From Nitrososphaeria archaeon (GTDB taxonomy: Archaea > Thermoproteota > Nitrososphaeria > Conexivisphaerales > UBA164), in assembly GCA_046536595.1 (NCBI GenBank), contig JAWDMM010000003.1, forward strand, positions 1,836 through 65,835: a stretch of 64,000 nt of DNA, written 5' to 3'. A program made the position numbers and the translations under genes. A model generated the notes under the pieces. The model was given only the letters and a program-made list of their open reading frames with translations, did no database searches and was not told the origin of the DNA. Position 1 is the stretch's first letter, and each line of letters starts with the position of its first letter. This document shows positions 13,286 through 55,825 of this stretch, piece by piece.

Positions 13286-13427
13286 GTGAACTACCCTGCC
13301 CTCACTGGCAAGGCTTCCCGGTTCATCGAAACGCTTACGTGTGGAATGTTTGCATTCCACCGTCGCAGAGGCGTTTCATCCCTGGGCGTCTCGCCTGCAT
13401 TCCACAGGCAAAGCCCATTTGGGCATC
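13286..13427 (-). ncRNA. Putative TnpB omegaRNA scaffold (3' guide would continue into 13285-13266)
   Basis: Hairpins GCCTG/CAGGC, GAAACGC/GCGTTTC and GTGGAATG-CAAA-CATTCCAC. Ends at the right-end GTAGTTCAC. TATA-like TTTTATATAAA at ~13444-13454 lies upstream. Expression is inferred. Confidence 0.65.
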
Positions 13428-13523
13428 AATAATATAAAATTTCTTTATATAAAAACATTTCTGTAAGTGGCTATTCATCCCCTACCTCGCGGAAGGGGAC
13501 TTTCGCCCCTTAACCCCAAAAAG
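13286..13523 (-). mobile_element. Non-autonomous IS200/IS605 (IS1341-like) mini-element, copy E1; no ORF
   Basis: Minus strand reads TTTAA | CTTTTTGGGGTTAAGGGGCGAAAGTCCCCTT (hairpin with GAAA loop and bulged T) ... TCGATGAACCGGGAAGCCTTGCCAGTGAGGGCAGGGTAGTTCAC. Collinear homology with 55572-55825. Confidence 0.85.
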
Positions 13524-13623
13524 TTAAAAAATTATCTGAATAAATTATAAGCTCATAACACAGAAAATTCATCTGTGCTGATTATAAGTTTGATAGATTT
13601 GGATTAATGTTTTAATAATAAGA

Positions 13624-14424
13624 TCATTTTCCAAACCTTCTGTTTCTTTTTTCATAAGTTCTAAGGATCCTCAAAAAATCAATCTTTCTTAAATCTGGCC
13701 AGTATATATCCATAAAAACCATTTCGCTGTAAGATGATTGATAGAGTAAAAAGTCGCTCAACCTCATTTCGCCAGAAGTTCTTATTATAAGATCTGGCTC
13801 AGGGAATGGAAGGTCTCCAGTATAAAGCTTTGACATAAAAAACTCTTCATCAACAGCTTCAGGAGAAATTTTTCCATCCTTTACTTCCCGGACTATTTCT
13901 TTTACAGCATTTAGAATTTCATACCTTCCACTGTACGCAACAGCCACGTTTATGACCATTCCATCGTTGTTTTTTGTACTGCTTTCAAGCTCTTCGAACT
14001 CCCGTTTAAGAGCATCAGGCAGAAGCTCTTTATTTCCAAGTGTTTTAATTCTTATTTTGTGCTTTTCTATAAGCCCGCTTTCTTCAAGCTTTTTAAGCTT
14101 TTCATACATGTTCTCGACTATAGAGCTGAGCTCCTCAGGTGATCTCTTAATGAGATTGTCTTTAGACAGAGCATAGAATGTTATTATCTTTATATTATAA
14201 TCCAGAGACCATAGAACAAACTTTTCCGCTATATCAGCTCCATACCTGTACCCTTCCCAGGAGGGAAGGTTTCTCTCGTTTGCCCATCTTCTGTTACCGT
14301 CCATTATAACAGCTATGTGCTTTGGCAAAGGGCCTCCTTTAACCTCTTCATCGAGCATCTTTTCATAAAGGGATTCTATACCCATGATTTTGATTATTTT
14401 TCTTAAAATTGTATTGGCTTTCAT
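13624..14424 (-). CDS. uppS: Cis-prenyltransferase (undecaprenyl/polyprenyl diphosphate synthase)
   Basis: HIAVIMDGNRRWA, PDLIIRTSGEMRLSDFL, RRFG. Confidence 0.96.
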   Translation of the reverse strand: MKANTILRKIIKIMGIESLYEKMLDEEVKGGPLPKHIAVIMDGNRRWANERNLPSWEGYRYGADIAEKFVLWSLDYNIKIITFYALSKDNLIKRSPEELSSIVENMYEKLKKLEESGLIEKHKIRIKTLGNKELLPDALKREFEELESSTKNNDGMVINVAVAYSGRYEILNAVKEIVREVKDGKISPEAVDEEFFMSKLYTGDLPFPEPDLIIRTSGEMRLSDFLLYQSSYSEMVFMDIYWPDLRKIDFLRILRTYEKRNRRFGK

Positions 14425-15515
14425 TTTTGTTTAACCTTAAAGTAATCAGCAAGGATATAGTAAATCAGAATTATCATTATGGCAAGTATAGCCAGTATTA
14501 TAACAACAAGGGATATGCCAGAGATCTGAGGGTTCATAAGAACTATGCCAACGTTGTACACTGGTATGTAAAAAAGAAGAAGAGATATCAAAAGCGTCGC
14601 TTCTCTTAAAGCAAGATATCTGCTTCTTCTGAAATACAGAAAGAAGTTTACAACAAGTTGCAGACCTATGGCTATCCACACATAAGTTTCCATGGTTATT
14701 ATGGAAGCTCCAACAAGGTACCCAAATGCATATACTTCAAAACCTTTTTGAAGCACGGCAAACTGCTGCGAAAGCAAAATCTCCTGTGCGGTCTTTATGC
14801 TGCCCAAAATTACTATTATCAGCCCTGACATGGCGCTCAAAAATTTTACAAGAAAGTTTGTGCTCTTTCTCATCTGACCTACAGCGTTGTCAAGGTTAAA
14901 CCCTCTAATGATAAGAGCCAGACTCAGAATCAATGCGAGAAGATACCCTGCATATTCCCTTATGGGCGAAAGGTAAAGAAGAGAGTATGCTAGCAAAAGT
15001 ATGCCAGGAACGCCTAGAAAATACTTTGAATATCTAGTATCGTATATAGCCATTTTTAAGTACTTGCCCAGTATTATGTAGCTCTCTTCGATGTTGCGGC
15101 TGTACTTAACCACAATTCTGACGATAGACCTTATTGATCCATAATTCATTATGATGGGTAAAATTTCTTCATCTTCAACGCCATCTGATACAAGTATTAT
15201 TTCTTCAAAATTAAGCTGTTTTTTAAGGTATGCCACTTGATTTCTGATCTTCGTATCAGCTTTTAACCCGCCGTTGCTGTCTCCGCTAACAGCTGCTATT
15301 TCGCAATCTTCGTTTGATTTTTTTAATTCATCATAAACCTTGATAGCGCCCATCATTGCATTTCCGTCAGCTTCTTCAGGATCGTTTAGCAAAAGTTTGT
15401 TAGCCGCTTCTAAAACCTTCTCTCTTCCGATTATGGGAGTAGATAAACCTGCCTTTAAACCTATATCATCGTCGCGATCAGCAACAAGAACGAGTGTTTT
15501 CGACAAACTATACAA
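14421..15515 (-). CDS. DUF373 family membrane protein
   Basis: LVLVADRDDDIG, DPEEADGNAM, VSDGVEDE and hydrophobic C-terminal helices. Typical neighbour of uppS in archaea. Confidence 0.85.
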   Translation of the reverse strand: MYSLSKTLVLVADRDDDIGLKAGLSTPIIGREKVLEAANKLLLNDPEEADGNAMMGAIKVYDELKKSNEDCEIAAVSGDSNGGLKADTKIRNQVAYLKKQLNFEEIILVSDGVEDEEILPIIMNYGSIRSIVRIVVKYSRNIEESYIILGKYLKMAIYDTRYSKYFLGVPGILLLAYSLLYLSPIREYAGYLLALILSLALIIRGFNLDNAVGQMRKSTNFLVKFLSAMSGLIIVILGSIKTAQEILLSQQFAVLQKGFEVYAFGYLVGASIITMETYVWIAIGLQLVVNFFLYFRRSRYLALREATLLISLLLFYIPVYNVGIVLMNPQISGISLVVIILAILAIMIILIYYILADYFKVKQK

Positions 15516-15627
15516 TTAAGATAAACGGCTATTATTTTAAGTTTATTGGTAGCTTCAAAGATAAACTGCTAATATATGAAAAAATAAAAAATTTAAAAAC
15601 AAGCAAACAAATGGTTAAACAATTAAA

Positions 15628-16728
15628 TTGAACTACCAGCCACGGGTTTCAGTGATCATACCAGTTTATAAAAACCCAATGAATCTTAGCGAAATTTTAA
15701 GAGCTATTTTTAACGACAGTTATAAAGAAAAAGAAGTCATAATCATAGCAGATGAACCGGATGATGATTTTTTTAGAACTGATTTTTTAGAGAGATGCAA
15801 GTTAATAGTCAACGAAAAAAGAATTGGAAAAGTTGAATCTCTTAACAAAGCTGTTAAAATAGCTAACGGGGATTACCTGATATTTTTGGATTCCGACGTA
15901 TTTATACCAGATGACCTTGTATCAAGGTCTGTTCAGGTTGCTCTAAATTCTAATGCGGACATAATAGATTATGTAAAGCTTGGTTACGGCAGCAAGCTTA
16001 TTGAGAGGATGGCATCAATAGACTACGCAATAGCAAGCGAGTTCCTCGAAATAGGCTCCAAGTTTTCTAGAAAGACCATAGCTCTGGATGGCGCTGCATT
16101 TATGATAAAAAAGGATAGCCTGATTAAGGTTGGTGGTTTTGATCACTTTTTTGCTGAAGATTTATATCTGGGTTTGAAAAGCTATAATCACGGGTTAAAG
16201 TATATAATTTCTGATATAGAAGTTCGCGTTAAGCAGCCTGATAACATAAAAAAATGGTTTGATCAGAGGATAAGATGGTCTTATGGATTATCAGAATGGA
16301 TTTTAAACAACCTTTTAAGGTTGATTTTTTATTTTATGAAGACGCCTTGGCTTTTTATCTCTTTTATTGTCTTTGTTGTCTCACCTTTAACTTCATTGGG
16401 CTTCTTTTATCTAATTTCAGCTCCTTTTGTTAACAATTTTATGATGCTTTATATGTTTAATCCGGTTATCAAATTTACGCCTTTGTTAGCAAGGTTTCCT
16501 ATGATTTATCTGGTTTATTTTACACGTTTTTTTGCGATATTTATGGGATCATTTGTTTTAACCATGATAGCTTACTCATTTATTTTAAAACATTACAAAA
16601 TTAAATACAGATTTTATGATCTGTTAGTTTATTATTTCCTTTATCAGCCATTGTTGTTCGCAACTTACATGCTTGGGTTTGCAATCTACGTTCTTAAAGT
16701 TAGGGTTGAACTTAATTGGAAAGTTTAA
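15628..16728 (+). CDS. Processive membrane glycosyltransferase family 2 (polysaccharide synthase-like)
   Basis: SVIIPVY, FLDSD, AEDL and QRIRW (QxxRW), followed by several TM helices. Confidence 0.9.
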   Translation: MNYQPRVSVIIPVYKNPMNLSEILRAIFNDSYKEKEVIIIADEPDDDFFRTDFLERCKLIVNEKRIGKVESLNKAVKIANGDYLIFLDSDVFIPDDLVSRSVQVALNSNADIIDYVKLGYGSKLIERMASIDYAIASEFLEIGSKFSRKTIALDGAAFMIKKDSLIKVGGFDHFFAEDLYLGLKSYNHGLKYIISDIEVRVKQPDNIKKWFDQRIRWSYGLSEWILNNLLRLIFYFMKTPWLFISFIVFVVSPLTSLGFFYLISAPFVNNFMMLYMFNPVIKFTPLLARFPMIYLVYFTRFFAIFMGSFVLTMIAYSFILKHYKIKYRFYDLLVYYFLYQPLLFATYMLGFAIYVLKVRVELNWKV

Positions 16729-17732
16729 AAAGGATAAAGTTTTCCTTTAACAAGCCAGTAAGCTATAAGTATCTATATGACAGGAGTGACGAAATAAGGA
16801 AATTATCAGAAACAGAATCCGCTTTTCTGTTAGGGCCGTTGGGAATAGGTAAGACATCTCTTTTGAAATCTTATCTGGAACATAAAATGTGTAACGCATT
16901 ATGGATAAACGGAGAAAGGATAAGGAATTTTAACGCTTTTATAAACAGTTTAAAGAAACAGTACAGCGAACTGCTTAAAAATAGGTTGGTTAAAAAATCA
17001 CCCGGCCCATTATCTGAATTAAATGCCCCACTTTTAGAGATAGAAAGTTATAAGGAGGGCAAATCAGACAGGTATACTTTTTTAAATAATTTTTTAGAAG
17101 AGCTAACTTTTATAAGCGACCAAAAAATCTGTCTGGTTATAGATGATTTTACTGAAATTAGAAAGATAGGACCAGCTTTTTTGGATATAAGCAGATCTAT
17201 CTATAAGGTTCTTAAAAAAAGAAATATAAGCATACTGTTAGCTTCATCAGAACTCGGTTATGCAAGAGAAATTTTAAAAAAGAAGGATCTCCCGCTTGAA
17301 AAAGTATTTTCTGTGCTAACTTTAAAGCCATTTAGTCTTGAAGACTCATCTGATTTTTTATCTAAAGGACTAGAAGGTTACGGCGTTAGCTGTCCAAAAA
17401 AGTACATAGGAGATTCCTATTATGTATCTGAAGGCTTTCCTCTTTGGCTCTCACTTATTGGTTTAAGAATGTTAGAAGGAAAGTGCAACCCAGAAGGCAT
17501 TTATACAGACAGAAGAGCACAGCTGTTCTGGGTTGAAAGGATGACAAAGCTTTCAGCTAAAGAGAAGTACATACTGAGGCTTATAGCAAAGGGGGAAAGC
17601 TACAGATCCGTAGGACCACACAGCAGGCGTGCACTAATTTCTCTTATAAGAAGAGGTTACATAATAAAAAACAAGCAAGAAGAAATAGTAGACCCAGTTC
17701 TTCAATATCTTTTAAAGATGGAACTCATATGA
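16716..17732 (+). CDS. Archaeal AAA-type ATPase with probable C-terminal winged helix
   Basis: Walker A GPLGIGKT, Walker B LVIDDF, C-terminal 'RRALISLIRRGYI'. Confidence 0.8.
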   Translation: MESLKRIKFSFNKPVSYKYLYDRSDEIRKLSETESAFLLGPLGIGKTSLLKSYLEHKMCNALWINGERIRNFNAFINSLKKQYSELLKNRLVKKSPGPLSELNAPLLEIESYKEGKSDRYTFLNNFLEELTFISDQKICLVIDDFTEIRKIGPAFLDISRSIYKVLKKRNISILLASSELGYAREILKKKDLPLEKVFSVLTLKPFSLEDSSDFLSKGLEGYGVSCPKKYIGDSYYVSEGFPLWLSLIGLRMLEGKCNPEGIYTDRRAQLFWVERMTKLSAKEKYILRLIAKGESYRSVGPHSRRALISLIRRGYIIKNKQEEIVDPVLQYLLKMELI

Positions 17733-17852
17733 ACGTTATGCATTTTTATATATGTTGATTAAACGAAGAAAATTTTTGGAAGCAAGGTCATAATAAGCTA
17801 AAAACGATAAATGTTTAAATAAGAACGTATTTTTATTATTTAAAGCAATAAG

Positions 17853-18728
17853 TTGTATGATATTCTGAGATCAGAGAACATTAGAAGGATGCTTTTAGAT
17901 TTTATTTTAGGTTACCCTATAGATATTAGAATTTCTCTTTCAAAAAAAGAACCTATATATTCTGTTAACAACAAAGTTTTAGATGAGAATACTTTAAAGC
18001 TTCTGATTGAAAGCAAGATCATCTATTATGCTGGTAATGAAAGTTTTTTAGCTTGCCCTAAAGATGCCTCGATGAACCTGCATGTAATTTTAATCTGTCC
18101 CGTGCATAAAGTTGCGTTGCAAAAAATAGAAATATACGAAAATAAAACAACCGGCGCCATAATCAATGCTGCAGCAGGTGAAACGTCTCAGAATTTAATT
18201 AAGAGGGGTTATTATCTAAAATGCGAGAAAGGAGAGACAGTTTTTAACCCGGACTTTCTTTATAGGTGTGAGAATGGTCATGTTTTTGGCCTGGAAGATG
18301 CGATCGTAGCTAACGTTAAAAAGTACAGGGTGAACGAAGATACGCTTAATTTAGTAAAAGAATATTTTAACGAGTTAAATCAGGTTTCTAATTTCCTGTC
18401 AAACGAAGGGTATAAAATACTTGAAAACAGGAAATTTAAAGGATTGAGCGGTGTAGATTATGAGTTTGATTTGATGGCTAAGAAAGGCGAACAGCAGATA
18501 GCCTTTTATTTTATCAAAGGGGATAAAGTAGAAGAATTACTTTCTCTCCTTCCAAAACTTTATGATATATCGCAGATACGCAATGTACCTTTGAACATTT
18601 TTATAGTCACGGGTAAACAGGTAAACGACGATCTGCTACACATGTTTGACAGGTACAACGTAAAGGTTATAAAAGCAGAAAAAGCAGACGAAATCTTAGA
18701 CTTTATAACCAAAAACCTTAAATCATAA
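17853..18728 (+). CDS. TackOD1-like Zn-ribbon domain fused to a PD-(D/E)XK/Mrr-like fold domain
   Basis: LACPKD, ICPVH, YRCENGHVF and KKYRVNE resemble thaumarchaeal output domain 1. C-terminal GLSGVDYEFDL. Confidence 0.6.
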   Translation: MYDILRSENIRRMLLDFILGYPIDIRISLSKKEPIYSVNNKVLDENTLKLLIESKIIYYAGNESFLACPKDASMNLHVILICPVHKVALQKIEIYENKTTGAIINAAAGETSQNLIKRGYYLKCEKGETVFNPDFLYRCENGHVFGLEDAIVANVKKYRVNEDTLNLVKEYFNELNQVSNFLSNEGYKILENRKFKGLSGVDYEFDLMAKKGEQQIAFYFIKGDKVEELLSLLPKLYDISQIRNVPLNIFIVTGKQVNDDLLHMFDRYNVKVIKAEKADEILDFITKNLKS

Positions 18729-18843
18729 GTTTTGAAAATTATTAATATTTTATGAGAACCATCAGTTATAAAAAAATTTGGTTGAAATCAGGACATTTTA
18801 GCATATTGTTTTATACATTTTTGTACAGCACAGCTATTGAACG

Positions 18844-19707
18844 GTGAAAAACTTGTCTATTTTAGATTCATTAGCAAAGTTTGCCCTTTCTAGAATAGGA
18901 CCAAACACATGGCTGTTTAAAATTTTCGGTGATCCTACTGAAGACATTAAAAAGGCATGGATTAACCTTACAGCTGACGAATACTCTTCCTTGATGTTTC
19001 TGATTTCGATCATAGCATCAGCTTTAAGCGCTGACATTTTGGCGCTATTGTTTGTATTTATAAGGATTCCCTGGTATATTGTCCCAACGGCTTTTGTTCT
19101 GGTTTTCTTTTTGAGCAACGCAACGTTTAGAGTTTACCCGATTTTTCTCAAATCAGAAATTTCAAGCAGTTTAAGCTTGAGGTTGCCTTATCTGGTAATA
19201 GAAATGGCCGCCCTATCAGACACCGGGATGACCATTGAAAAAATATTTGAAAGTATGTTAGCACTTGAGCCAGATAAGTATACTAGAAAGGTGCTGAGCT
19301 TTATAGTTAGAAACATCAAAATTTTTGGGATGGACATAACTCAATCTTTGGACGCAACGATTAAAAGATCCCCAAGCAGAGACTTTGCAGAGTTTATCCT
19401 TTCACTTAAGGGCGCGCTCATGACGGGTTCTGAAGTACGACATTTTCTTGCTGAATACTCTCAAAAGGTTATGATAGATAAAAAGATAAACCTAAGATAT
19501 CTTATAGAAAGGCTTAACATAATTGCTGAAGCTTTCACAACTCTTTTCGTGGTTCTGCCATCAGTTTTGCTGATCATGATACTGCTCTTCACAATGATCT
19601 CGTTTAAACCTTATTATTATGTATTTTTCCTGATCATAACATATGGGCTCATACCGTTAATGGGGATCTTCTTTATAATGTTGCTGGAGGCAACGAGGCC
19701 AAGATGA
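18844..19707 (+). CDS. Type II secretion F-domain / TadC-ArlJ-like membrane platform protein
   Basis: TM pairs flanking 'LPYLVIEMAALSDTGMTIEKIF', 'GMDITQSL...RSPSRDFAEFI'. Confidence 0.85.
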   Translation: MKNLSILDSLAKFALSRIGPNTWLFKIFGDPTEDIKKAWINLTADEYSSLMFLISIIASALSADILALLFVFIRIPWYIVPTAFVLVFFLSNATFRVYPIFLKSEISSSLSLRLPYLVIEMAALSDTGMTIEKIFESMLALEPDKYTRKVLSFIVRNIKIFGMDITQSLDATIKRSPSRDFAEFILSLKGALMTGSEVRHFLAEYSQKVMIDKKINLRYLIERLNIIAEAFTTLFVVLPSVLLIMILLFTMISFKPYYYVFFLIITYGLIPLMGIFFIMLLEATRPR

Positions 19708-20525
19708 ATAAAAAAGATATTCCGTTGCTGGCTGGCATATTTGCTGGCATCGTTATCATTCTGATTATACCGTTAAAGCGCATAGAAATAATGAGTTATC
19801 AGTTCGGCATGATACTCGGGATAACCCTGGCAGTTTCTGTTATGCCTTACGGCATAACAGTATACCTTCAGGAAAGGGAAAATTTAATATTGGACAAAGA
19901 TCTGCTGGATTATCTATCTCAGGTAGAAAGCTATGTAAAATCTGGGAAAAGTTTAATGTTCGTTATAACTTTACCAAAAAATGAAAGGAAGAAGCCATTA
20001 AGAAAAAGGCTTGAAGCGCTCGAGAGGATGCTTAACCTTGGAATGTCGCCCGATGATGCTTTAAACAGAATAGCTTTGTCTATGCCAACGCTGCTTTCAA
20101 AAGAAGCTTTTTCAATCATACACAGGCTGGTTGTGTACGGCGGCGACGTAAGTGGAGTGCTGGAATCAGTAAGAGAGCATCTTGGAGACCTTTATGCAAT
20201 TGAAAATGAAAAAAGAAGCGTCATGAGAAACTATGGAAGCATAATATACATTTCATTTTTTATCCTGCTGATCATAATAATATTTTTTATCAGGTTTTTC
20301 GTTAACAACACAAGCTCTTTTTCTGCTGTTTCCATGACTTCGCCTTTTAGCTCATTTTCAAACACCTCTACTGTTAAAAATCTAATTCTCCAATTCCTCA
20401 TTATTGAAGGTTTTGTTTCAGGTTTGATAACCGGAAAATTGATATCGGGGAAGACATCCTCAGGCTTGCTGCACTCAGCAGTAATGGTAATTCTTACGCT
20501 TTTTGTTTACTCAATATTTATATAA
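19704..20525 (+). CDS. Type II secretion F-domain / TadC-ArlJ-like membrane platform protein
   Basis: 'SYVKSGKSL', 'LGMSPDDAL', 'YGGDVSGVLE', 'IEGFVSGLITGK...SSGLLHS'. Confidence 0.85.
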   Translation: MNKKDIPLLAGIFAGIVIILIIPLKRIEIMSYQFGMILGITLAVSVMPYGITVYLQERENLILDKDLLDYLSQVESYVKSGKSLMFVITLPKNERKKPLRKRLEALERMLNLGMSPDDALNRIALSMPTLLSKEAFSIIHRLVVYGGDVSGVLESVREHLGDLYAIENEKRSVMRNYGSIIYISFFILLIIIIFFIRFFVNNTSSFSAVSMTSPFSSFSNTSTVKNLILQFLIIEGFVSGLITGKLISGKTSSGLLHSAVMVILTLFVYSIFI

Positions 20526-20569
20526 AATAGGTTAAAGGGAAAGCTGCGCTTTTTAATGCTGAGAGATGC

Positions 20570-21244
20570 TCAGGATTTGTGTATTCTAGAATGCCAGATG
20601 TAAGCTATTTCTCCGGTAAGCTTGTATACTTTAACGTTATTGAAACGCTCGAACATTTTTTTCCTAACAAATTCAGGGTTGAGATCCATTATACTGTTTG
20701 TAAGCCAGCGATAAGCCGGGTTGTTGTACAACCCTCCAACAAAATTCACCATTTTAAAGTAAACATAAAAAAAGGCCAGCACGAGCCCTTTTGTAGGCTT
20801 GGCAGTATCTAGCATGACAAGGTTTCCTTTTTCGTTTAGAACCCTTGCGCATTCATCAAAAACTTTGTCTATACCCACCTTTTTAAAGCTGCGTAAAGTG
20901 AAAGAAGATACTATAGTATCAAAAGCACCATCCCTGAACGGCATGTTTGTCGCTGTGCCTATTACAGGATCAGAAAAGCGTTGAAGCTTCTTTATGTTTT
21001 TTAATACCATACTCCTTGTTAAATCCAAACCAACTGGGAAAACACCTGTGTCCTGGTTAACGTTACTTGATAGGTAACCTGTACCAATTCCAAGGTCAAG
21101 TACAGACCTTGATTGGCTGAGAAAGTGTTTCGTAACGCTCCTCCTCCACAGCCTTACTAGCATAAAGCTGAAGAGATCGTTGAAGAAATCATACAGCTTT
21201 GATACGTTCTCAAACATGCTTTTTATTTCTTTTTCTGGGATCAT
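20570..21244 (-). CDS. UbiE/MenG-like SAM-dependent methyltransferase
   Basis: YDFFNDLFSF...WRR, VLDLGIGTG, MPFRDGAFD, RVLNEKG. Confidence 0.85.
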   Translation of the reverse strand: MIPEKEIKSMFENVSKLYDFFNDLFSFMLVRLWRRSVTKHFLSQSRSVLDLGIGTGYLSSNVNQDTGVFPVGLDLTRSMVLKNIKKLQRFSDPVIGTATNMPFRDGAFDTIVSSFTLRSFKKVGIDKVFDECARVLNEKGNLVMLDTAKPTKGLVLAFFYVYFKMVNFVGGLYNNPAYRWLTNSIMDLNPEFVRKKMFERFNNVKVYKLTGEIAYIWHSRIHKS

Positions 21245-25241: not shown

Positions 25242-25290
25242 TGATATACTTTCAAGCTGTTAAATTATAATCTTTCCTAAAAAACTTCAA

Positions 25291-25541
25291 CTTTATGGGG
25301 GTTAAGGGGGCGGAAGTCCCCTTTCTCAAGCTCTAAATAGTCCCTTATACAAATATTTTTAAACACTTTAGCACATTATCTTTAAAATACCGGTGTCCAA
25401 ACCTGAAAATAATGCAGGTATCGGAGAAAAATCTTTTTAGAAGGAAATTGCAGGAAGCCAGAACATATGAGTTGAAGATTTAAAAGAGCCAACGTGGCAT
25501 ATAAGCTGGAAGCCCTGGCTGCAAAGGTTGTGGTAGTTTAC
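25291..25541 (+). mobile_element. Diverged copy (E3) of the IS200/IS605 mini-element
   Basis: TTCAA | CTTTATGGGGGTTAAGGGGGCGGAAGTCCCCTT, then TAAATAGTCCCTTATACAAATATTTTTA (cf. E2 TAAATAGCCCCTATAGAAACGTTTTTA). Ends GGAAGCCCTGG...GGTAGTTTAC. Length similar to E1/E2. Confidence 0.65.
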
Positions 25542-25599
25542 AAAAATAGGAACATTTAGAAAACTTTTAAAATGCGCCAAAATCATATTTCTTGTTGTC

Positions 25600-34118: not shown

Positions 34119-34249
34119 TTGTTAAGCTTTATCTTTTTACCAGAGACCTTATCCGAAACAGTATACCAAACTTTTGTATGATGGATTTGCCGCCTTCAAG
34201 TTTTATGAGCGGCTTTTCCTTAAAATAGCTTTAAACTGTCAAGCAGGTT

Positions 34250-34440
34250 AATCAAATACGCTGATTATTATCACAATACATTATGTGGTGCCAGTCAATC
34301 GCAACTATTACGGGTTTTTGAACGCGCCAGAATCTCTCATTTTTATAATTAGTTCGTTGTACTCATGGGCCCTGTTGCTTCAGGTTGTTCCTTATAGCAT
34401 GTCCACATAGGTTTAAAAAGCATTATCCATAGATTTTTCC
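34250..34440 (-). pseudogene. Degenerate ISH3-like (IS4 superfamily) transposase fragment
   Basis: Minus strand gives AHEYNELIIKMRDSGAF, then a one-base shift in an A-run to KPVIVAIDWHHIMY, which resembles the ISH3 first catalytic-Asp motif. Stop codons nearby. Confidence 0.5.
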
Positions 34441-34539
34441 AAAGGTTGATTAAAACATAATGCGCTTTACCATTATTAGATCGTAAGATTGTTTATGGTT
34501 TGCATAAACGGTAAAAGGCCATCCTGCGTTAAAAAAATT

Positions 34540-34572
34540 TTGAACTACTGGTAAGGGCGGGGTAGTTTTCAA
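34540..34572. repeat. Isolated IS605-type right-end remnant forming a hairpin
   Basis: TTGAACTACTGGTAAGGGCGGGGTAGTTTTCAA shares GTAAGGGCGGGGTAGTT with the E2 right end. AACTAC/GTAGTT are inverted. Confidence 0.55.
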
Positions 34573-34629
34573 GCTCGTATAAATTCTATTTGTTAATTAA
34601 AATATATAAAATCGGGGTCACAAAGGATA

Positions 34630-48213: not shown

Positions 48214-48270
48214 TTTTATAATTATTCCTAACAGATATATAAAAACACTACTATTGATTCTTTTTAGGAA

Positions 48271-48798
48271 TCATTTAATCAATTCATTATATGCTTTTTT
48301 AAAATCTTCCTGGCAGGATTTGCACAGCATCGGTAGCTTTGTGTCAACGTCCTTTAAGCTTTTAGCATGGCTCATTATACATGTTTGATTTAAGCAGTGT
48401 CCCAAACCCCAGAAATGGCCTATAAGATGGGCAGCTTCTTTCATTATTCTTTCTTTTGCCAGTTTTGGATCGGAAATCAACCTATCTTCGCTCAGGATAG
48501 CTACCCTCTCTTTAGGATCTACTATACCGAAAATTCTTGAACCGGTTGAATCTACAATCGGCAAACCTGTTACGATAAAAACATAATGATGATTTTTTGG
48601 AATTATATCCCTTACCTGTTTAAGGATCTGATCCCCATCATAAGTTTTTAAATTAACGTTGAATTCTACATCCTGATGATCTCTGATGCTCATGTTATAG
48701 AGGGATGCAGCTATCTTATAGCTTTCTAAATACCTTGTTGCGTACCCGTTTAGGAAATAGAGGTCAATTTCAAGTTTGTTAATCTTTTTTTCACTCAA
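48271..48798 (-). CDS. Archaemetzincin-like protein with altered zinc motif (HLIGH)
   Basis: KEAAHLIGHFWGLGHC...CIM...CKSC matches the archaemetzincin pattern except for the catalytic Glu. Confidence 0.8.
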   Translation of the reverse strand: MSEKKINKLEIDLYFLNGYATRYLESYKIAASLYNMSIRDHQDVEFNVNLKTYDGDQILKQVRDIIPKNHHYVFIVTGLPIVDSTGSRIFGIVDPKERVAILSEDRLISDPKLAKERIMKEAAHLIGHFWGLGHCLNQTCIMSHAKSLKDVDTKLPMLCKSCQEDFKKAYNELIK

Positions 48799-50038
48799 TC
48801 ACTTCACCAGTCCTTGCGCATGTAGCGTTTAACCCCATACTATTTAGCTCTAACGCAAAAGCTTCGCAGTTTTCCTGTTCACCGTGAACAAGAATTATTT
48901 TTGGAGAGCCTTTGAGCGACTTGAACATCTGCAAAAGCTGAGACCTGCCAGAATGGCTCGATAGATCAAACTTACCAACCTTGGCGTTAACGCTGTAATG
49001 GTTTCCGTTAAAGTTCAAGCTACCTTCTTCTACCAGCGATCTGCCAGGCGTTCCCTCAACCTGATACGCGACTATAGCTATACCGTTCTTTGGGTCCTTT
49101 GAAATTTTTTTGCTGTAAAATACTGAAGCGCCCCCCATCAGCATCCCGGCTGGAGAAATTATGACTGCTGGCTCTTTTACAATTTTTCTTCTATCTTCCC
49201 ATCCATTAACATAATTTAAGCGCCCAAGAGCGCTTCTTAAAAATTCGGGGTCTCTTAAAAATTGCGGGTTGTTCAGGAGTATGTCGTTTACAGTAAGAGC
49301 CATACCATCCATATAAACGTCATGCTTAAAGTTATAAGAATAAAATATCTCGGCCAGCTCCTGAGCCCTTCCGACAGCGAAAGCTGGAACAAGAACAGTG
49401 CCTCCATCTTCTATTATTTCGTTAGAAAAATCTATGAGCTTTTTTTCTTCTTGTTCTCTTACAGGATGATCCTGCATTGCGTACGTACATTCAGACACAA
49501 TATAATCTACTTCCGGAAGATCATAAGATGCAGGGTTGAGCAACCTCGTTTGTATATGGTTTATATCTCCCGTATACAAAACCTTCTTGCTTCCCTTCAT
49601 GTAGACCATAGAGCTGCCAGGAATATGTCCGGCATTAAAAAATTCAGCTTCAATACCGTTTATGTTAAAAAGTTCTTCATATTCTATTGCTTTGCTCATC
49701 CTAACAAGTTTTTTTACTTCTTGTTGAGTGAACGGAAGCTTATCGCCTGAAATGTTTAATAGATCATAAAGTAGAAGCTCTGTGAGCTCAATAGTGACCT
49801 TTGTAGCATAATGTGGAACGTTCCCATCTATATAAAGATAAGGCTCATAGCCTATATGGTCTAGATGCGCGTGTGTCGTTATCAACGCAGTTAAGTCTTT
49901 GGGTCTTACATGTAAGGGGTGGACTATGTTTTTTCCTGGATTTAATCCATAATCTAAGAGTATGGTTGTGGAATTATCTTTTACTAAAATGCCGGAATTA
50001 CCTATGATTCCTCCGGCACCTAACACTTTTATTTGCAT
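48791..50038 (-). CDS. MBL-fold beta-CASP ribonuclease (aCPSF2-like)
   Basis: THAHLDH, AGHIPGS, ECTY, PAFAVGRAQE, SSHSG, LVHGE. Confidence 0.9.
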   Translation of the reverse strand: MQIKVLGAGGIIGNSGILVKDNSTTILLDYGLNPGKNIVHPLHVRPKDLTALITTHAHLDHIGYEPYLYIDGNVPHYATKVTIELTELLLYDLLNISGDKLPFTQQEVKKLVRMSKAIEYEELFNINGIEAEFFNAGHIPGSSMVYMKGSKKVLYTGDINHIQTRLLNPASYDLPEVDYIVSECTYAMQDHPVREQEEKKLIDFSNEIIEDGGTVLVPAFAVGRAQELAEIFYSYNFKHDVYMDGMALTVNDILLNNPQFLRDPEFLRSALGRLNYVNGWEDRRKIVKEPAVIISPAGMLMGGASVFYSKKISKDPKNGIAIVAYQVEGTPGRSLVEEGSLNFNGNHYSVNAKVGKFDLSSHSGRSQLLQMFKSLKGSPKIILVHGEQENCEAFALELNSMGLNATCARTGEVIE

Positions 50039-50111
50039 TTTACCTTCAGTTTTAACTTTTTGAAAACATTAACTTGCTTATTATTTAATCTTTCTCCAAA
50101 AATGCATTCAA

Positions 50112-50166
50112 CCGGTATTTTTATGCCAAGTTAGGAAGTCCCAGATTTTATGTTTAGGTAGTTCAC
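50112..50166 (+). repeat. Possible ~55 bp remnant of the IS605 mini-element family
   Basis: Follows TTCAA, contains GGAAGTCCC and ends GGTAGTTCAC. Confidence 0.4.
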
Positions 50167-50210
50167 AAAGGTTTATAACGCGCTAAACTACTTAAGTTTG
50201 AGGGAAATAA

Positions 50211-50645
50211 ATGTTTAAAGTGGCATCATCGGGTTGGGAAAAGCTCGATAAAGAAATATCAAGGATGAAAGAAAGCAGTCAAGTCAGCGCGTTGCTTTCA
50301 GTAGAGGTTGTACCTGCTCAGGAAAACATAGATTTGCAGAAAGAGCTTAAAAACGCATCAACCAGCACGGCGGATCTATGCGAGTTTGAGACAGACATTC
50401 ATGAAGACCATGGAGCATTGAACTGCCAAAAGTTGTTAGAAGATGGTTTTTCTGATGTGCTGAAAGACGTAATAAACAGAGTCAATTCGCTGGGAACACT
50501 GTTTGTGGCTGGCTTTCAGGCAGAAATCTACCGCGACCAGGATCTCATAATGATAATGTTTGGAGACAGCTATAACGCAACTGTAATCTATCCACATGAA
50601 AGCGGTAAAAAACTTGAAGTAATGCAGCTTGAGTTTACTATATAA
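50211..50645 (+). CDS. Hypothetical acidic protein
   Basis: 144-aa ORF with ATG, preceded by TATA-like TTTATAA. No recognisable motif. Confidence 0.6.
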   Translation: MFKVASSGWEKLDKEISRMKESSQVSALLSVEVVPAQENIDLQKELKNASTSTADLCEFETDIHEDHGALNCQKLLEDGFSDVLKDVINRVNSLGTLFVAGFQAEIYRDQDLIMIMFGDSYNATVIYPHESGKKLEVMQLEFTI

Positions 50646-50762
50646 AAGTTTCAAGACTGATTTAGTATAAACCTAAAAAAGTAAATAAGGTGCAGCGTGT
50701 GGGCATTTTTTAGAAAGCTCTAAAATAAAATAAAACGTTTATTAGCAAACAATTTTAAGGTT

Positions 50763-51938
50763 ATGAAGGTGAGTAAAATGGAAATTAAGAGGAAGTCTAT
50801 AATGCTCCCAGGCCCCGTGGACGTCCCTGATGACGTTTTGATGTCGATGAGCAAGCCTGTTATAAATCACAGGGGGGAAGAATTTCATCAGCTTATGTCA
50901 AACATAGAAAAGATAAGCAAGGAGCTTTTTAAGACCAAGTACAATGTTATAGTTCTCTCATCCTCGGGTACTGGTGGTGCTGAATCTGCTGTTATGAACA
51001 TCATAAGACCAGGCGACAAAGCAATAGTGCCAGTATTTGGAGAGTTTAGCGGCAGGTTAGCGCAACAGATAGAAATGGCCAGAGGCAAAGTTGTTAGGGT
51101 CAATGCGCCTTTTGGGACGGCTCCTTCTGTAGAACAGATTGAAAAGGCTGCTTCTGAAAACAAAGACGCCAAGGCCATATACCTTGTCTATAACGATACT
51201 TCGCCGGGAACTACTTACAGGTATGCAAAAGAATTGGGCGAAATAGCTGAAAAATATGGCATGTTTTACGTAATAGATGCTATATCTGTGTTTGGAGGAG
51301 ACGTCCTTCCGATGGATGAGTGGCATGCTGACGTCGTGATAGCAGGAAGCCAGAAATGTCTTTTCACGCCGCCGGGTTTGGCCTTGGTTGGCGTAAGCGA
51401 CGACGTAATTAACTATGTGAGGAAGGACCCACCATACTCAACGTACTTTAACTACGCATCATATGTGGATTTTCTTGCAAAATATGAGACACCATTTACT
51501 CCAGCTCTTCCATTATTTTATGCTCTGGAAACTGCGTTAGAGAAGATAGCAAGTGTAGGATTGGAAAGGACAATCCAAAAACACATGATAGGAGCTCAGG
51601 CCTATTATAGCGCGTTTGAATCGATGGGTCTTAAGCCATTTGTTGATGAAAAATTCAGATCAAACGTCGTGATATCTATAAAGTACCCACAGGGAGTTGA
51701 TGACATAAAGTTTAGAAAATATCTTGAAAATAATTATAATATCGTTATAACTGGCGGCTTTGGTGAGCTTAAAGGAAAAATATTCAGAATTGGTAACATG
51801 GGCATCATAGAGCGCTCTAAGATTCTGCCAACCATCATAGCTGTAGGTTATTCAATGATAGCGCAAGGCATAAATGTTAATGTTGAAAAAGCTATAGAGG
51901 TGGCAGAGGAAAAATTAAAGGGGTTAGATAATATTTGA
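50763..51938 (+). CDS. Class V aminotransferase (serine-pyruvate/alanine-glyoxylate type)
   Basis: MLPGPV, HRG, SGTGG, VIDAISVFGG, GSQKCL..PPG, FRIGNMG. Confidence 0.93.
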   Translation: MKVSKMEIKRKSIMLPGPVDVPDDVLMSMSKPVINHRGEEFHQLMSNIEKISKELFKTKYNVIVLSSSGTGGAESAVMNIIRPGDKAIVPVFGEFSGRLAQQIEMARGKVVRVNAPFGTAPSVEQIEKAASENKDAKAIYLVYNDTSPGTTYRYAKELGEIAEKYGMFYVIDAISVFGGDVLPMDEWHADVVIAGSQKCLFTPPGLALVGVSDDVINYVRKDPPYSTYFNYASYVDFLAKYETPFTPALPLFYALETALEKIASVGLERTIQKHMIGAQAYYSAFESMGLKPFVDEKFRSNVVISIKYPQGVDDIKFRKYLENNYNIVITGGFGELKGKIFRIGNMGIIERSKILPTIIAVGYSMIAQGINVNVEKAIEVAEEKLKGLDNI

Positions 51939-52609
51939 ACCAAAATTCGTTGATATTAATAAACTATACAACTAAAATAAAAGAAACAGGAGAAGTAATA
52001 GAGACAACTATAGAAGAAGTAGCAAAGGCTAACAAAATCTACAAAGAAGGAGCAAAGTATGAGCCGAAGCTCATTGCTGTTGGTAAAGGCTGGATACTTA
52101 AAGCACTTGACGAAGAAATACAGAAGCTTAACGTAGGAGATAAAGCTACGATTGAAGTACCTCCTGAAAAAGCATTCGGAAACCGTGATCCTTCAAAGAT
52201 AAAGGTTATACCTCTGAGAAAGTTTGGGGAAAAAGCAAAAGACGTAAACGTTGGTGACCAAGTTGAATATAATGGACAGGTCGGAACAGTAATTTCTATA
52301 AATAGTGGTAGGGTTCAGATTGACTTTAACGATAGACTAGCTGGCAAAACTCTAATATATGAAATTGAAATAATTAAGGAGATAACCGATCTGAACGAAA
52401 AGGTGGAAAAGCTAATTCAGAGAAGGATAGAGATACAGAACCCTGTATATAAGGTCGATCAGGGTAAAGTCAGGATTGAAATTCCTGAGCAGTATTTTCT
52501 TACGGATGGCCTTCAGTACATAAAGAGAGCAATAGCGAACGATATTCTTGATATAATTCCAGAGATAAGTCAAGTAGAGTTTGCTGAAATATACGCTAAA
52601 AAACAATGA
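51935..52609 (+). CDS. FKBP-type peptidyl-prolyl isomerase (SlyD-like)
   Basis: VPPEKAFG.RD, IDFN..LAGKTL. Confidence 0.92.
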   Translation: MNQNSLILINYTTKIKETGEVIETTIEEVAKANKIYKEGAKYEPKLIAVGKGWILKALDEEIQKLNVGDKATIEVPPEKAFGNRDPSKIKVIPLRKFGEKAKDVNVGDQVEYNGQVGTVISINSGRVQIDFNDRLAGKTLIYEIEIIKEITDLNEKVEKLIQRRIEIQNPVYKVDQGKVRIEIPEQYFLTDGLQYIKRAIANDILDIIPEISQVEFAEIYAKKQ

Positions 52610-53880
52610 AAATACTTTTTAAAGGAAAGTATTTATTAACTGATTATTTAAACGAACCTTTAAAAGATTTTTCAGTTCTTGTCGAAGATAAAAAAATAGT
52701 TAAAACAGGAAAAACAGATAAGCTAAGGCCAGAGGCAGAAGACGTCTACGACCTGGGTAACGTTTTGATAGCGCCGTCTTTTGCAAACACTCATTCTCAC
52801 GTTGGAATGGTGGCCTTAAGAGGTATAGGAGAAAATAAAACCCTCTATGATTGGTTGCAAGAGGTTTGGAAGATAGAGTCTAAACTTAACTACGAATTTC
52901 TTTATCACGCAAACATTCTGGGCCTTGGGGAAATGATAAGCTCAGGCGTTACAGCCTTCCTCGATTTTTATGATATACCGCCAATGGTAAGGGCCGTTAA
53001 GGCGATAGGTTTACCTGTTAAGGTAAAGCTTGGGTTGGCTTTTATGGACAGGGTTCCCTACATGAAAGAAGAAAGCTGGAAAAGGCTCAGAAACATAAAA
53101 AACATTTCAGCTGATCTTTTGAAGGATGGTTTTGAAGTCTTCATTTCGCCTCATTCACTCTACGCAGTAAGTGAGGAAATGTTAAAAGAGCTCTTCAGCA
53201 TGCAGGGTTTCAGGTATCAGATGCACTTTGCTGAAAACAGAGAAGAACTTGCAGAAATAAAGAAGGCTTATGATAAGAGCCCGGTTGAAATTCTGGAAAA
53301 AATAGGTGCTATAGATAAATGGCTTATACTAGCTCACGCAGTGCACCTTGAAGTCAATGAACTCAGCAAGCTTTCTCGAAATAATATATTTGTTTCTCAC
53401 TGCCCTTTTTCTAATTCTAGGCTAGCAAGCGGCATAGCTAAAATAAACGAAATGAAAAGGTTTGGAATACAGGTTAGCATTGGGACGGATGGTCCAGGAA
53501 GTTCTGAAACTCTTAACATTTTTAACGAAATAAGGCTTGCAGCGCTTTTATCCAGAGCCTATTCAATGAGCGTTAACATTTCTATAAAAGAAGTAATGAA
53601 GATGGCTTCCCACTATGGACATATTGCTCTAGGATTGGACTCAGGCGAAATAAAACCAGGAAAAAACGCAGACTTTATTGCATATGATCTGAATAAGATT
53701 TATCCGTCATGGGATCTGGTGGCTTCTCTTGGCTATCAAGGGGGACCCGAAATCGTGAAGGACGTGATATCTGATGGATCTTTCTTAAAGAAAGATGGGA
53801 AGCTGTTATTTTATGATCTGTACAAAGAAAGTTTGATTAAGGTTGATGAATTTATATCAGGTAGAGGCGAAAGGAATTAA
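52606..53880 (+). CDS. Amidohydrolase (MtaD/DadD-like methylthioadenosine/SAH deaminase)
   Basis: NTHSH, MHFAE, AHAVH, HCPFSN.RLASG, GTDG. Confidence 0.88.
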   Translation: MKILFKGKYLLTDYLNEPLKDFSVLVEDKKIVKTGKTDKLRPEAEDVYDLGNVLIAPSFANTHSHVGMVALRGIGENKTLYDWLQEVWKIESKLNYEFLYHANILGLGEMISSGVTAFLDFYDIPPMVRAVKAIGLPVKVKLGLAFMDRVPYMKEESWKRLRNIKNISADLLKDGFEVFISPHSLYAVSEEMLKELFSMQGFRYQMHFAENREELAEIKKAYDKSPVEILEKIGAIDKWLILAHAVHLEVNELSKLSRNNIFVSHCPFSNSRLASGIAKINEMKRFGIQVSIGTDGPGSSETLNIFNEIRLAALLSRAYSMSVNISIKEVMKMASHYGHIALGLDSGEIKPGKNADFIAYDLNKIYPSWDLVASLGYQGGPEIVKDVISDGSFLKKDGKLLFYDLYKESLIKVDEFISGRGERN

Positions 53881-53888
53881 GCCATATA

Positions 53889-54905
53889 ATGGAACTGCCT
53901 GAAATTGTTATAGTAGGGGATAACACATTCAACAAAGATAATTTATCAAAATTAATAAAGAAAAAAGCCCTTTTGCTTACAGGACCTAACGTAAGCGGAT
54001 TATTTACTGAAAAAATCGATACAGCGTTAAGAGGATTTGAATATGAAAAGGAGGTTGTCTATGCATCAACGTACGATGAGGCTGAAAGAATATATAACAG
54101 ATGCTACGGCAAAGATTTTGAAGCGGTAATAGGTTTTGGAGGGGGTAAGGTGCTGGACGTTGCAAAGTACGTAGGATACAAAACAGGGATCCATGTGATA
54201 AGCGTGCCAACTTCTGCTTCGAACGATGGCATAGCTAGCCCTTTCTCTTCTTTAAAAGGAGGGACACATCCTTATTCAGTTAAAGTTAAACCTCCCCGCG
54301 GAGTAATAGTTGATCTTTCTGTGATAATGAAAGCTCCTAAGAGGTTCATACTAAGCGGTTTGGGCGATCTTTTGGGAAAGTTCACTTCGATCAGGGATTG
54401 GAAACTTGCCTGGATTGAGAAGAACGAATACTATGGAGAATACGCTTCTAAGCTGGCATATGAAAGCGCAAAACACGCAATGATAAGCACAAAAGGAATA
54501 GAGCTTTTAAAATACGTTTCGGTAAGGAACCTTATGGAAGCGTTGATAAGCGCAGGAGTTGCAGGTGGCATAGCGGGAAGCAGCAGACCATTAAGCGGCA
54601 GCGAGCACCTTGTATCTCATGCGCTTGATGTCATAGCTCCTGAAAAAGGTACACATGGCGAAAAAGTAGCCCTGAGCACCGTTTTTATAGCTTACCTCTA
54701 CGGGATTAACTGGAGAAAGATCAAATCAAAGATCCAGGAGGTGAGCTTACCTTCATCTTTTTCTCAGATAGGAATTAAACGTGAGGAAGTTGTCGATGCC
54801 GTTCTTATGGCCCCTTCGTTGAGGCCTGAAAGGTACACTATACTTCATAAGCTTAACTTGACAAAAGACACAATAAATAACATACTTGATGAGATAAACA
54901 TTTAA
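53889..54905 (+). CDS. egsA: sn-glycerol-1-phosphate dehydrogenase
   Basis: GFGGGKVLDVAK, SNDGIASP, SRPLSGSEHLVSHALD, HGEKV. Confidence 0.95.
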   Translation: MELPEIVIVGDNTFNKDNLSKLIKKKALLLTGPNVSGLFTEKIDTALRGFEYEKEVVYASTYDEAERIYNRCYGKDFEAVIGFGGGKVLDVAKYVGYKTGIHVISVPTSASNDGIASPFSSLKGGTHPYSVKVKPPRGVIVDLSVIMKAPKRFILSGLGDLLGKFTSIRDWKLAWIEKNEYYGEYASKLAYESAKHAMISTKGIELLKYVSVRNLMEALISAGVAGGIAGSSRPLSGSEHLVSHALDVIAPEKGTHGEKVALSTVFIAYLYGINWRKIKSKIQEVSLPSSFSQIGIKREEVVDAVLMAPSLRPERYTILHKLNLTKDTINNILDEINI

Positions 54906-54929
54906 TATTAATTTCTTGATATTATTATT

Positions 54930-55571
54930 ATGCAGGGACTTGACATAGCTCTTGATTTAATAGAAGAAAAACTTGTTGCTCTTAACAGGACACCGATAAT
55001 AGGCTTGGGAAGCGGGAGGACCGCATCAAGAGTTTTAAAAGAACTCGGGAAAAGGTTGAACAACAAGAATATAAGGCCTGTAGGCGTTCCTACTTCAGGT
55101 CAGATAAAGCTTGAGGTTCTTGATTATTATCTTATATCAGAACCAAACTTTAGCTTTCTCGACTTAGTAATCGACGGTGCAGACCAGGTGTCAAGCTATA
55201 ACGGATACATAATAAAAGGCGGTGGAGGGGCACTTACAAAGGAAAGGATAGTCTGGGAACTTTCTAAAGAAAGGCATGTTTTTGTATCACAAGATAAGGT
55301 AGTTGAAAAGCTAGTTTACCCTTTACCAGTTGAGTTTATTCCATTTTCTTACTTTCTGGTAAAAGACAGCCTGATAAGGCTAGGGCTTAAACCAAGTTTA
55401 AGGGTTGACTCACGGGGCTATCCTTTTATAACCGAAAACGGGAATTATATATTCGATGCTTCATATTCTGAAAACTCTGACCTCAAAAGCGCTTATGAAG
55501 AGATAATCAGGATACCTGGTGTTCTTGATGCTGGCCTGTTTATTTATGACATAAATCTTCATGTAATTTAA
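54930..55571 (+). CDS. rpiA: Ribose-5-phosphate isomerase A
   Basis: IGLGSGRT, IDGADQV, IKGGGGAL..E, ITENGNYI.D. Confidence 0.95.
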   Translation: MQGLDIALDLIEEKLVALNRTPIIGLGSGRTASRVLKELGKRLNNKNIRPVGVPTSGQIKLEVLDYYLISEPNFSFLDLVIDGADQVSSYNGYIIKGGGGALTKERIVWELSKERHVFVSQDKVVEKLVYPLPVEFIPFSYFLVKDSLIRLGLKPSLRVDSRGYPFITENGNYIFDASYSENSDLKSAYEEIIRIPGVLDAGLFIYDINLHVI

Positions 55572-55825
55572 CTGGCAGGCGAAGGGGGGGAAAGTCCCCT
55601 TGCACGAGGGGGAAATAAATAGCCCCTATAGAAACGTTTTTATTATGAGAAAATATTACATTATTGATGCCCAACCTAGAAAAGGAGAGGCTTTCCCTTT
55701 GGAGCATAGGGGAGACGCCAGGCTATGGAAAACGCCCCTGCGATGGTGGAATACTTGCAAAGTATTCCGCAGGTAAGCATATCGATGAACCGGGAAAACA
55801 AGCTCGTAAGGGCGGGGTAGTTCAC
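55572..55825 (+). mobile_element. Non-autonomous IS200/IS605 mini-element, copy E2, between rpiA and the next gene
   Basis: TTTAA (includes the rpiA stop) | CTGGCAGGCGAAGGGGGGGAAAGTCCCCTT ... TCGATGAACCGGGAAAACAAGCTCGTAAGGGCGGGGTAGTTCAC. Collinear with E1. Confidence 0.85.
55666..55825 (+). ncRNA. Putative TnpB omegaRNA scaffold (guide would continue into 55826-55845)
   Basis: Same hairpin order as E1 with changed but still pairing stems, e.g. GGAATACT-TGCAA-AGTATTCC. TATA-like TTTTATTA at ~55637-55645. Expression is inferred. Confidence 0.65.

Follow-up and report, generated by a model that had tools for sequence, protein, structure and literature searches.

The 64,000-nucleotide (nt) stretch analyzed here (the window) comes from a Nitrososphaeria archaeon (Conexivisphaerales; UBA164) and covers positions 1,836 to 65,835 (forward strand) of contig JAWDMM010000003.1 in assembly GCA_046536595.1. 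Its G+C content is approximately 39%. The host is archaeal and thermophilic, exact-sequence look-ups grouped it with metagenome-assembled genomes of hot-spring Nitrososphaeria, and the neighbor genes include those for a KH/Pno1-like protein, PAC2, a beta-CASP nuclease, and topoisomerase VI. Three intergenic elements (E1, E2, and E3) lie among these genes. We consider them likely to be nonautonomous, gene-less deletion derivatives of a tnpB-only (IS1341-like) element of the IS200/IS605 insertion sequence (IS) family, comparable to palindrome-associated transposable elements (PATEs) or miniature inverted-repeat transposable elements (MITEs). The intact ones would be usable in trans by TnpB for their own retention, not as a host repertoire. 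The elements and their 5' motifs, i.e., the presumed target or transposon-adjacent motif (TAM), are as follows.

13286-13522, minus strand: E1, 237 bp, gene-less, structurally intact
13523-13528, minus strand: TTTAAC, 5' motif (target or TAM) abutting the left end of E1
55573-55825, plus strand: E2, 253 bp, gene-less, 5' arm of the right-end hairpin mutated
55567-55572, plus strand: TTTAAC, 5' motif of E2, overlapping the rpiA stop codon (55569-55571)
25292-25541, plus strand: E3, 250 bp, gene-less, other deletion class
25286-25291, plus strand: TTCAAC, 5' motif abutting the left end of E3

Element ends and the full-length parent

The left-end motif GGGG[C/G]G[A/G]AAGTCCCCTT occurred exactly three times in the window (0.01 expected), and in E1, E2, and E3 it folds as GGGGC-GAAA-G(T)CCCC with the T bulged. 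GGTAGTT(C/T)AC forms the right terminus of all three. These motif counts confirmed the coordinates and ends of the three elements of shared layout described in the initial annotation; the positions held, and the boundaries were slightly refined to those listed above, with TTTAAC or TTCAAC as the 5' motif. Also as annotated, no tnpA or tnpB open reading frame (ORF) was present in the window. E1 and E2 were collinear throughout (right-end arms, 81% identical), and E3 was alignable with them only at its two ends (~110 nt on the left and ~50 nt on the right). The ends carry subterminal hairpins, not terminal inverted repeats, and the right-end hairpin is degraded in E2.

Relatives were retrieved by pattern scans. 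The left-end pattern gave 6 loci in species-representative genomes, 4 of them archaeal (three in one Nitrososphaerales metagenome-assembled genome [MAG], where short copies were seen, and one in a Sulfolobus MAG). The right-end pattern gave 106 loci in metagenomes, mostly from hot-spring samples; most were gene-less copies of 196 to 274 bp (minis), and some were full-length. The contigs hosting family members ranged from 35% to 66% G+C. Information content fell to approximately 0 upstream of TTTAAC (57 distinct left flanks) and directly past ...TTCAC (83 distinct right flanks). The motif next to the left end was near-invariant at the 57 distinct sites (TTTAAC or a one-base variant), and no target-site duplication or repeat was seen among the 83 right flanks. 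With hairpin ends, an apparently specific 5' target or TAM, and no duplication seen, the family matches the behavior of IS200/IS605 elements.

The best full-length copy (L027; 1,367 bp) carries an intact gene for a TnpB of 419 amino acids (aa). In order, it consists of TTTAAC, the left end TTTATGGGGGTTAAGGGGCGAAAGTCCCC, a TATA box TTTTTATATAAAG, a spacer of ~20 nt, a GTG start, and the 419-aa ORF, whose stop codon lies 5 nt before the right end ...GGGTAGTTCAC. The ORF matched Pfam OrfB_IS605 and Cas12f1-like_TNB, as well as the ISDra2 TnpB structures in the PDB (8exa and 8h1j; E=2e-10). Its 422 homologs at E<=1e-10 came from Nitrososphaeria, Conexivisphaerales, Thermoplasmata, Thermofilum, Micrarchaeota, and others, with proteins P0001 to P0004 as close relatives. 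The search for a tnpB with matching ends, suggested with the first description of the elements, therefore found one in metagenome data (L027). A second full-length copy (L117), in an NCBI Nitrososphaeria MAG (39.5% G+C), was 89% identical to L027 over 1,368 nt. The parent was probably an element of ~1.37 kb composed of TTTAAC, a left-end hairpin, a TATA box, a probably leaderless tnpB (419 aa), a right-end hairpin, and terminal ...GTAGTTCAC.

In the established model of IS200/IS605 elements, TnpA works on the hairpin ends, and the 3' end of tnpB together with the right end gives rise to the omegaRNA. The right flank supplies the guide, the motif that precedes the left end acts as the TAM, and TnpB cuts the vacated donor site again. 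Both halves of E1 and E2 could be placed on L027 by blastn. E1, whose state is intact, corresponds to L027 nt 3-86 plus 1231-1367, and E2, with its mutated right-end hairpin, to nt 23-120 plus 1224-1367; nhmmer detected E1 with both the left-end (E=6e-30) and right-end (E=8e-37) profiles. This mapping shows E1 and E2 to be the full element minus ~1.1 kb of tnpB, with the left end, TATA box, start codon, and last ~137 to 145 nt kept. The deletion has joined the promoter and start codon to the final ~45 codons and the right end. An independent noncoding RNA gene family was rejected as an explanation because both element halves map onto the tnpB element. The features of the three elements are listed below.

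13495-13509, minus strand: E1 left-end hairpin, GGGGC-GAAA-G(T)CCCC
13444-13453, minus strand: E1 TATA box TTTATATAAA, inherited from the tnpB promoter
13424-13426, minus strand: E1 remnant tnpB start codon, ATG
13286-13418, minus strand: E1 omegaRNA-type scaffold (tnpB 3' end plus right end), ending in GGGTAGTTCAC
13270-13285, minus strand: E1 presumptive guide ATGATTAAAACTGTAT, flanking DNA assigned by the IS200/IS605 omegaRNA rule
55637-55646, plus strand: E2 TATA-like sequence TTTTTATTAT
55667, plus strand: E2 tnpB start codon, ATG, beginning ATG-CCC-AAC-CTA-GAA-AAG (MPNLEK, the TnpB N-terminus)
55687-55825, plus strand: E2 omegaRNA-type scaffold, partly decayed (nhmmer right-end profile, E=6e-37)
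55826-55841, plus strand: E2 presumptive guide AGTGAGTGAAGACATG, overlapping the start of a downstream 106- to 110-aa ORF (ATG 55839)
25393, plus strand: E3 remnant tnpB start codon, GTG, with a weak TATA box kept

The sequence TTTTTATATAAAG is common to the E1 promoter and L027, where it lies ~20 nt upstream of the TnpB GTG start. The E1 remnant reads ...NAGETP...VSVSMNREALPVRAG, matching the TnpB C-terminus ...LWNAGETPGDENAS...VSVSMNREALSVRAG. The E2 remnant ORF reads MPNLEKERLSLW, with the junction translated as MPNLEK/ERLSLW (the slash marks the fusion point). The coding remnants are short and frame-broken in the window copies. Because E1 and E2 differ by insertions/deletions whose lengths are not divisible by three, the conserved feature is the nucleic acid and not a protein. 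The presumptive E1 guide falls within the 33 nt that separate the right end from a downstream DHH-family gene (start 13252).

E3 maps onto the ends of L027 in a different way. What remains is L027 nt 2-211, comprising the left end and ~36 tnpB codons in a decayed state, together with the terminal ~50 nt of the right end. The first part matched window positions 25285-25490 by nhmmer (E=4e-12), and the Smith-Waterman score of E3 against the parent tnpB 5' region was ~5 standard deviations above the shuffle mean. The 140-nt right-end profile did not detect E3 by nhmmer. With just the terminal ~50 nt remaining on the right, E3 lacks an omegaRNA scaffold. The initial annotation was therefore right that all three are internal-deletion derivatives of an IS200/IS605-family element. 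It also held that promoter and omegaRNA had been kept, which applies to E1 and E2 (blastn to L027 and folding) but not to the scaffold-less E3. The E3 body, taken there for a diverged version of the E1/E2 body, is instead the 5' end of tnpB and is not homologous to it.

The minis occupied 38 distinct insertion sites and fell into at least three junction classes: class A (E1 type; junction GATGCCCAA/ATGGGC), class B (E2-like type; ...PNLEK/EGLSLW...), and class C (E3 type; tnpB 5' region with a short right end). Classes A and B retain ~140 nt of 3' sequence; class C retains 50 to 70 nt or less, yet it has spread. A second left-end hairpin resembling the right-end hairpin was present in E1 and class B copies and absent from L027; it was not used in this analysis.

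Some loci from the scans were irregular. L106 and L069, with a left end ~1.4 kb upstream of the right end, were rejected as full-length copies and are noncoding composites or assembly chimeras. Together with L032, they share an identical 600-nt right flank ATACGAATTAGACAAATAAATAACA, and their left flanks are unrelated; the content upstream of the right end is 1,451 nt and 1,496 nt in L106 and L069 (both noncoding) and 231 nt in L032, a mini. The pattern reflects either assembler chimeras across the repeat or recombined copies. At L029 (~4395-4805, minus strand), two family members stand head to tail, and CTTGAC is all that separates the right end of the first from the left end of its neighbor; the second apparently inserted beside the TTCAC-like end of the first.

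Scaffold structure and state of the copies

To describe the scaffold, the last 140 nt of 84 unique copies were folded with RNAalifold. The consensus is a multihelix structure closed by pairing of the 5' end with the ...GUAGUUC 3' end, and 93.9% of the cells (84 sequences) contain standard pairs. Double-sided changes were present at 10 pairs, compared with a mean of 6.1 (maximum, 9) in column shuffles and 1 to 6 in slid controls, although the 84 sequences are related, retrieval by the right-end pattern fixes some columns, and the scaffold region is also coding in full-length copies. The covariation in this alignment thus lends moderate support to the predicted structure. Whether the stems covary had been raised as a point to check, and compensatory changes were indeed found, as in the following pairs (counts in parentheses).

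Pair 11-27: CG (54), GC (18)
Pair 15-23: AU (38), GC (27)
Pair 70-76: UA (39), CG (27)
Pair 116-129: CG (51), UA (24), in the right-end hairpin CCYYGYCC-loop-GGRCRGGG
Pair 37-106: GC (61), AU (8)

Pairing was 93.8% in the 38 minis, 98% in 3 full-length copies whose left end could be mapped, and 91% in 6 other copies taken to be full-length from a long upstream ORF. Individual folds of the window copies and the parent had the following minimum free energies (MFEs) and z scores.

E1: MFE, -63.4 kcal/mol; z=-5.3
L027 (parent): MFE, -59.0 kcal/mol; z=-4.5
E2: MFE, -48.9 kcal/mol; z=-2.5
E3: MFE, -22.8 kcal/mol; z=+1.3

E1 retains 90% of the consensus pairs and E2 retains 84%. The right-end hairpin of E2 is not formed (5' arm AACAAGCTC vs. 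consensus GCCCCGTCC), and its orthologs L093 and L113 to L116 carry the same change. The designation of E3 as an omegaRNA cassette did not survive, given that it has only the right-end tip and a fold with a positive z score. No Rfam family matched the elements at the gathering score or at E<=1, and the scans returned only tRNA-Lys and noise; this absence is expected for lineage-specific omegaRNAs.

The state of the copies was also assessed from other strains. Alleles at the E3 locus were 59 to 69% identical to E3, and their flanks were 92 to 99% identical. We conclude that E2 and E3 are decaying relics and that E1 looks intact.

The E3 region (25242-25599; loci L121 to L130), upstream of the KH-domain gene, is variable among strains with an identical KH protein. 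E3 is present in the window and in L128. L122 and L124 have decayed alleles in which G>A and C>T changes abound. In L125, L127, and L129, IS110-like DNA (PF01548/PF02371 fragments) is found with only the last 8 nt of E3 (TAGTTTAC) left, and L121, L126, and L130 have unrelated sequence at this locus. Many contigs end here.

At the E1 locus, L024, L119, and L120 have flanks at least 99% identical to those in the window and differ in the right-end hairpin (CCTTGCCAGTGAGGGCAGGG in the window vs. CCCTGTCCGTAAGGTCAGGG in these three). Both forms are family-wide variants, which suggests gene conversion or replacement between copies, not point mutation.

Two further sites in the window resemble element termini. 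In a 512-nt intergenic region (34119-34629), GTAAGGGCGGGGTAGTT at 34545-34572 (plus strand) matches E2 55804-55820 exactly, with TTCA after it. The nhmmer match was marginal (E=1.1), no left end was detectable nearby, and the chance of a 17-mer identity is ~2e-3 by a back-of-envelope estimate (not a tool result). This is probably the solo right-end remnant of a further, otherwise erased copy. A fourth exact GGTAGTTCAC at 50157-50166 (plus strand), in the intergenic region upstream of ORF 50211-50645, shows no further element similarity and may be due to chance (8 matches at <=1 mismatch vs. 4.9 expected).

Proposed retention in trans and alternative readings

The following sequence of events is proposed. 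Mobilization of the minis would depend on a Y1 TnpA that acts in trans and recognizes the shared ends. Those whose scaffold is intact (E1 and, doubtfully, E2) would be transcribed from the retained tnpB promoter, and the transcript would serve as an omegaRNA with the DNA adjoining the right end as its 3' guide. A compatible TnpB made elsewhere would then cut the vacated site (TTTAAC plus guide), in which TTTAAC would be joined straight to ATGATTAAAAC or AGTGAGTG. Such cutting would favor retention of the element, i.e., selfish maintenance and not a host guide repertoire.

A candidate for the type of transposase involved is found in L076, an IS605-type relative (5185-7350, minus strand) that has the same left- and right-end hairpins and the GTAGTTCAC end. 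Its tnpA (Y1_Tnp) is frameshifted and is a pseudogene in that copy, and its tnpB has the canonical Glu. The Y1_Tnp gene and the shared end hairpins therefore point to the kind of TnpA that would be able to move the minis in trans, although the TnpA genes linked to matching ends (L076 and L039) are pseudogenes only. An inserted ORF that encodes LAGLIDADG_1/_3 domains interrupts the L076 tnpB and suggests that a homing endonuclease entered this gene (as an intein or intron).

The cognate TnpB has an unusual active site. At the position of the canonical RuvC-II Glu, all 97 of the 97 full-length homologs (40 to 100% identity; family P0001 to P0120 and L027 2311-3570) share an invariant Gln, within the motif V-x-[YF]-Q-[DN]-[DE]-x-[IV]-x-x-W. 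The RuvC-I Asp and the RuvC-III DRD are kept. From these residues, the L027 TnpB clade appears to be rearranged or possibly noncutting. TnpB clades with a rearranged RuvC-II site have been documented and are predicted to stay active (PMC10691335).

Several points weigh against this proposal. In other assemblies, the E1 and E2 orthologs have diverged by 1.6 to 5.4%, compared with 0 to 1% in the mostly coding flanks, and the minis show no sign of strong purifying selection. Promoter use and the RNA 3' ends are inferred, and mobilization by TnpA in trans and binding of the minis by TnpB are proposed by analogy with the family. The nuclease activity of the cognate TnpB is unproven because of the invariant Gln. 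The tnpB of L117 is frameshifted, i.e., a pseudogene. L027 lies on a contig from the same JGI metagenome as a window-like contig (38.4% vs. 38.6% G+C), but it is not binned to this organism, and its placement in this archaeon's genome is unproven. Exact-protein look-ups of the neighbor genes gave occupied, decayed, or rearranged alleles only and no empty site. Because an empty site was not recovered, the assignment of TTTAAC as the target rather than the element terminus is an inference from the IS200/IS605 family rule.

The main competing explanation is that all three copies are inert relics from which no RNA is made or used, their structure reflecting recent descent and the hairpins needed for past transposition. 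The broken right-end hairpin of E2, the scaffold-less E3, the diverged alleles at the E3 locus, the faster divergence of E1 and E2 than of their flanks, the many full-length copies that are pseudogenes, and the lack of a tnpB in the window all fit this explanation. By contrast, E1 keeps every helix via compensatory variants with a fold (z=-5.3) equal to that of the parent, and the minis as a class pair as well as the full-length copies. Classes A and B also retain ~140 nt of 3' sequence even though the much shorter right end of class C suffices for spread, and the promoter and start codon are kept in the minis. We therefore regard general inertness as rather unlikely and prefer derivation by deletion with possible use of the intact copies in trans.

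A more ambitious scenario is that E1-type minis are expressed and loaded in trans by a TnpB with the Gln RuvC-II site, which would bind, or cut with altered specificity, and thereby form a multisite RNA-guided targeting or regulatory network for the host lineage or the transposon family. We treat this as a long shot.

We assign a still lower probability, bordering on the negligible, to the initial annotation's central proposal, a dispersed, CRISPR-like repertoire of trans-acting guides for TnpB or a nuclease-dead TnpB, taken here as benefiting the host in defense or gene regulation. In its favor, promoter and scaffold occur together in E1 and E2, the canonical RuvC-II Glu is missing from the cognate TnpB clade, and exapted TnpB regulators are known. 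Nevertheless, the guides are flanking DNA set by the insertion site, and the 83 right flanks carry no information, so such a repertoire is unsupported. The 16-mer guides had 39 (E1) and 17 (E2) matches in IMG/VR, which is approximately the chance level by our own estimate. The suggested search for guide matches beside the target motif gave a negative result, as none of these IMG/VR matches had a TTYAAY 5' flank, and a role of the guides as antiviral spacers was rejected on these two grounds. The mini copies are also polymorphic and decaying, diverging faster than their flanks, and they show no orientation bias to neighbor genes. Finally, a Gln that is invariant across a mobile multicopy clade fits a rearranged active site better than exaptation.

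Hardly any weight is given to the idea that the minis are mainly portable promoters whose retained tnpB TATA box drives a downstream host gene: all three window copies are co-oriented with the next ORF and lie 13 to 58 nt upstream of it, and E2 leaves no room for another promoter, but the 72 distinct sites show no orientation preference (33 co-oriented and 32 opposite), and TATA-like boxes lie between the right end and the gene start in E1 and E3. Promoter delivery was rejected because the arrangement in the window was not reproduced across the 72 sites, and for the same reason the co-orientation of the window copies is not evidence of a regulatory role.

Just 13 nt separate the right end of E2 from ATG 55839 of the next ORF. 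At this distance, the gene has no room for its own promoter, and it would thus be read either from the upstream operon through E2 or from the E2 promoter.

Relation to known systems and significance

The notion of gene-less omegaRNA cassettes, put forward for these elements in the initial annotation, has precedents. Standalone omegaRNAs acting in trans are described in PMC10691335, which cites the 2021 OMEGA paper, and PATEs are gene-less IS200/IS605 derivatives that need TnpB in trans and often encode omegaRNAs (PMC10055086). As summarized in PMC10691335, the standalone omegaRNA loci resemble the window copies in that a scaffold is mobilized without an effector or transposase and ends at the right end, with a guide from flanking DNA and expected use in trans with a compatible TnpB. 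The window copies differ in being archaeal (Nitrososphaeria, hot-spring community), in having an explicit origin (a join of the tnpB promoter and start codon to the final ~45 codons), and in the RuvC-II Gln for Glu of their cognate TnpB.

The PATEs of Geobacillus stearothermophilus (Meers et al. 2023, PMC10055086) and Haloquadratum (PMC3119063) are likewise short, gene-less, and multicopy, with ends whose subterminal hairpins are common to full-length ISs, a conserved 5' target motif, and presumed mobilization by TnpA in trans. The window family is a different sequence family in a different host, with at least three coexisting deletion classes, two of which keep the scaffold. L027 shares its architecture with IS1341-type elements and ISDra2. 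Its TnpB matches OrfB_IS605/TNB and ISDra2 TnpB (8exa), and the omegaRNA region overlaps the tnpB 3' end and the right end; unlike these elements, the window copies have no tnpB, and the RuvC-II motif is V-x-[YF]-Q-[DN]-[DE] instead of the canonical Glu. What is new is one particular archaeal family in which the promoter-to-scaffold fusion is explicit; it is not a new kind of system.

The family provides a traceable archaeal case of the origin of a standalone omegaRNA cassette by internal deletion, with three states within 64 kb: the intact E1, the decaying E2, and the scaffold-less E3. It should aid the annotation of such repeats in Nitrososphaeria and hot-spring MAGs, where repeats also break assemblies, and it may be used in population studies of transposon retention. 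It also defines a putative TAM (TTTAAC) and a predicted ~140-nt omegaRNA for a clade of thermophilic TnpB proteins whose RuvC-II site carries Gln in place of Glu.

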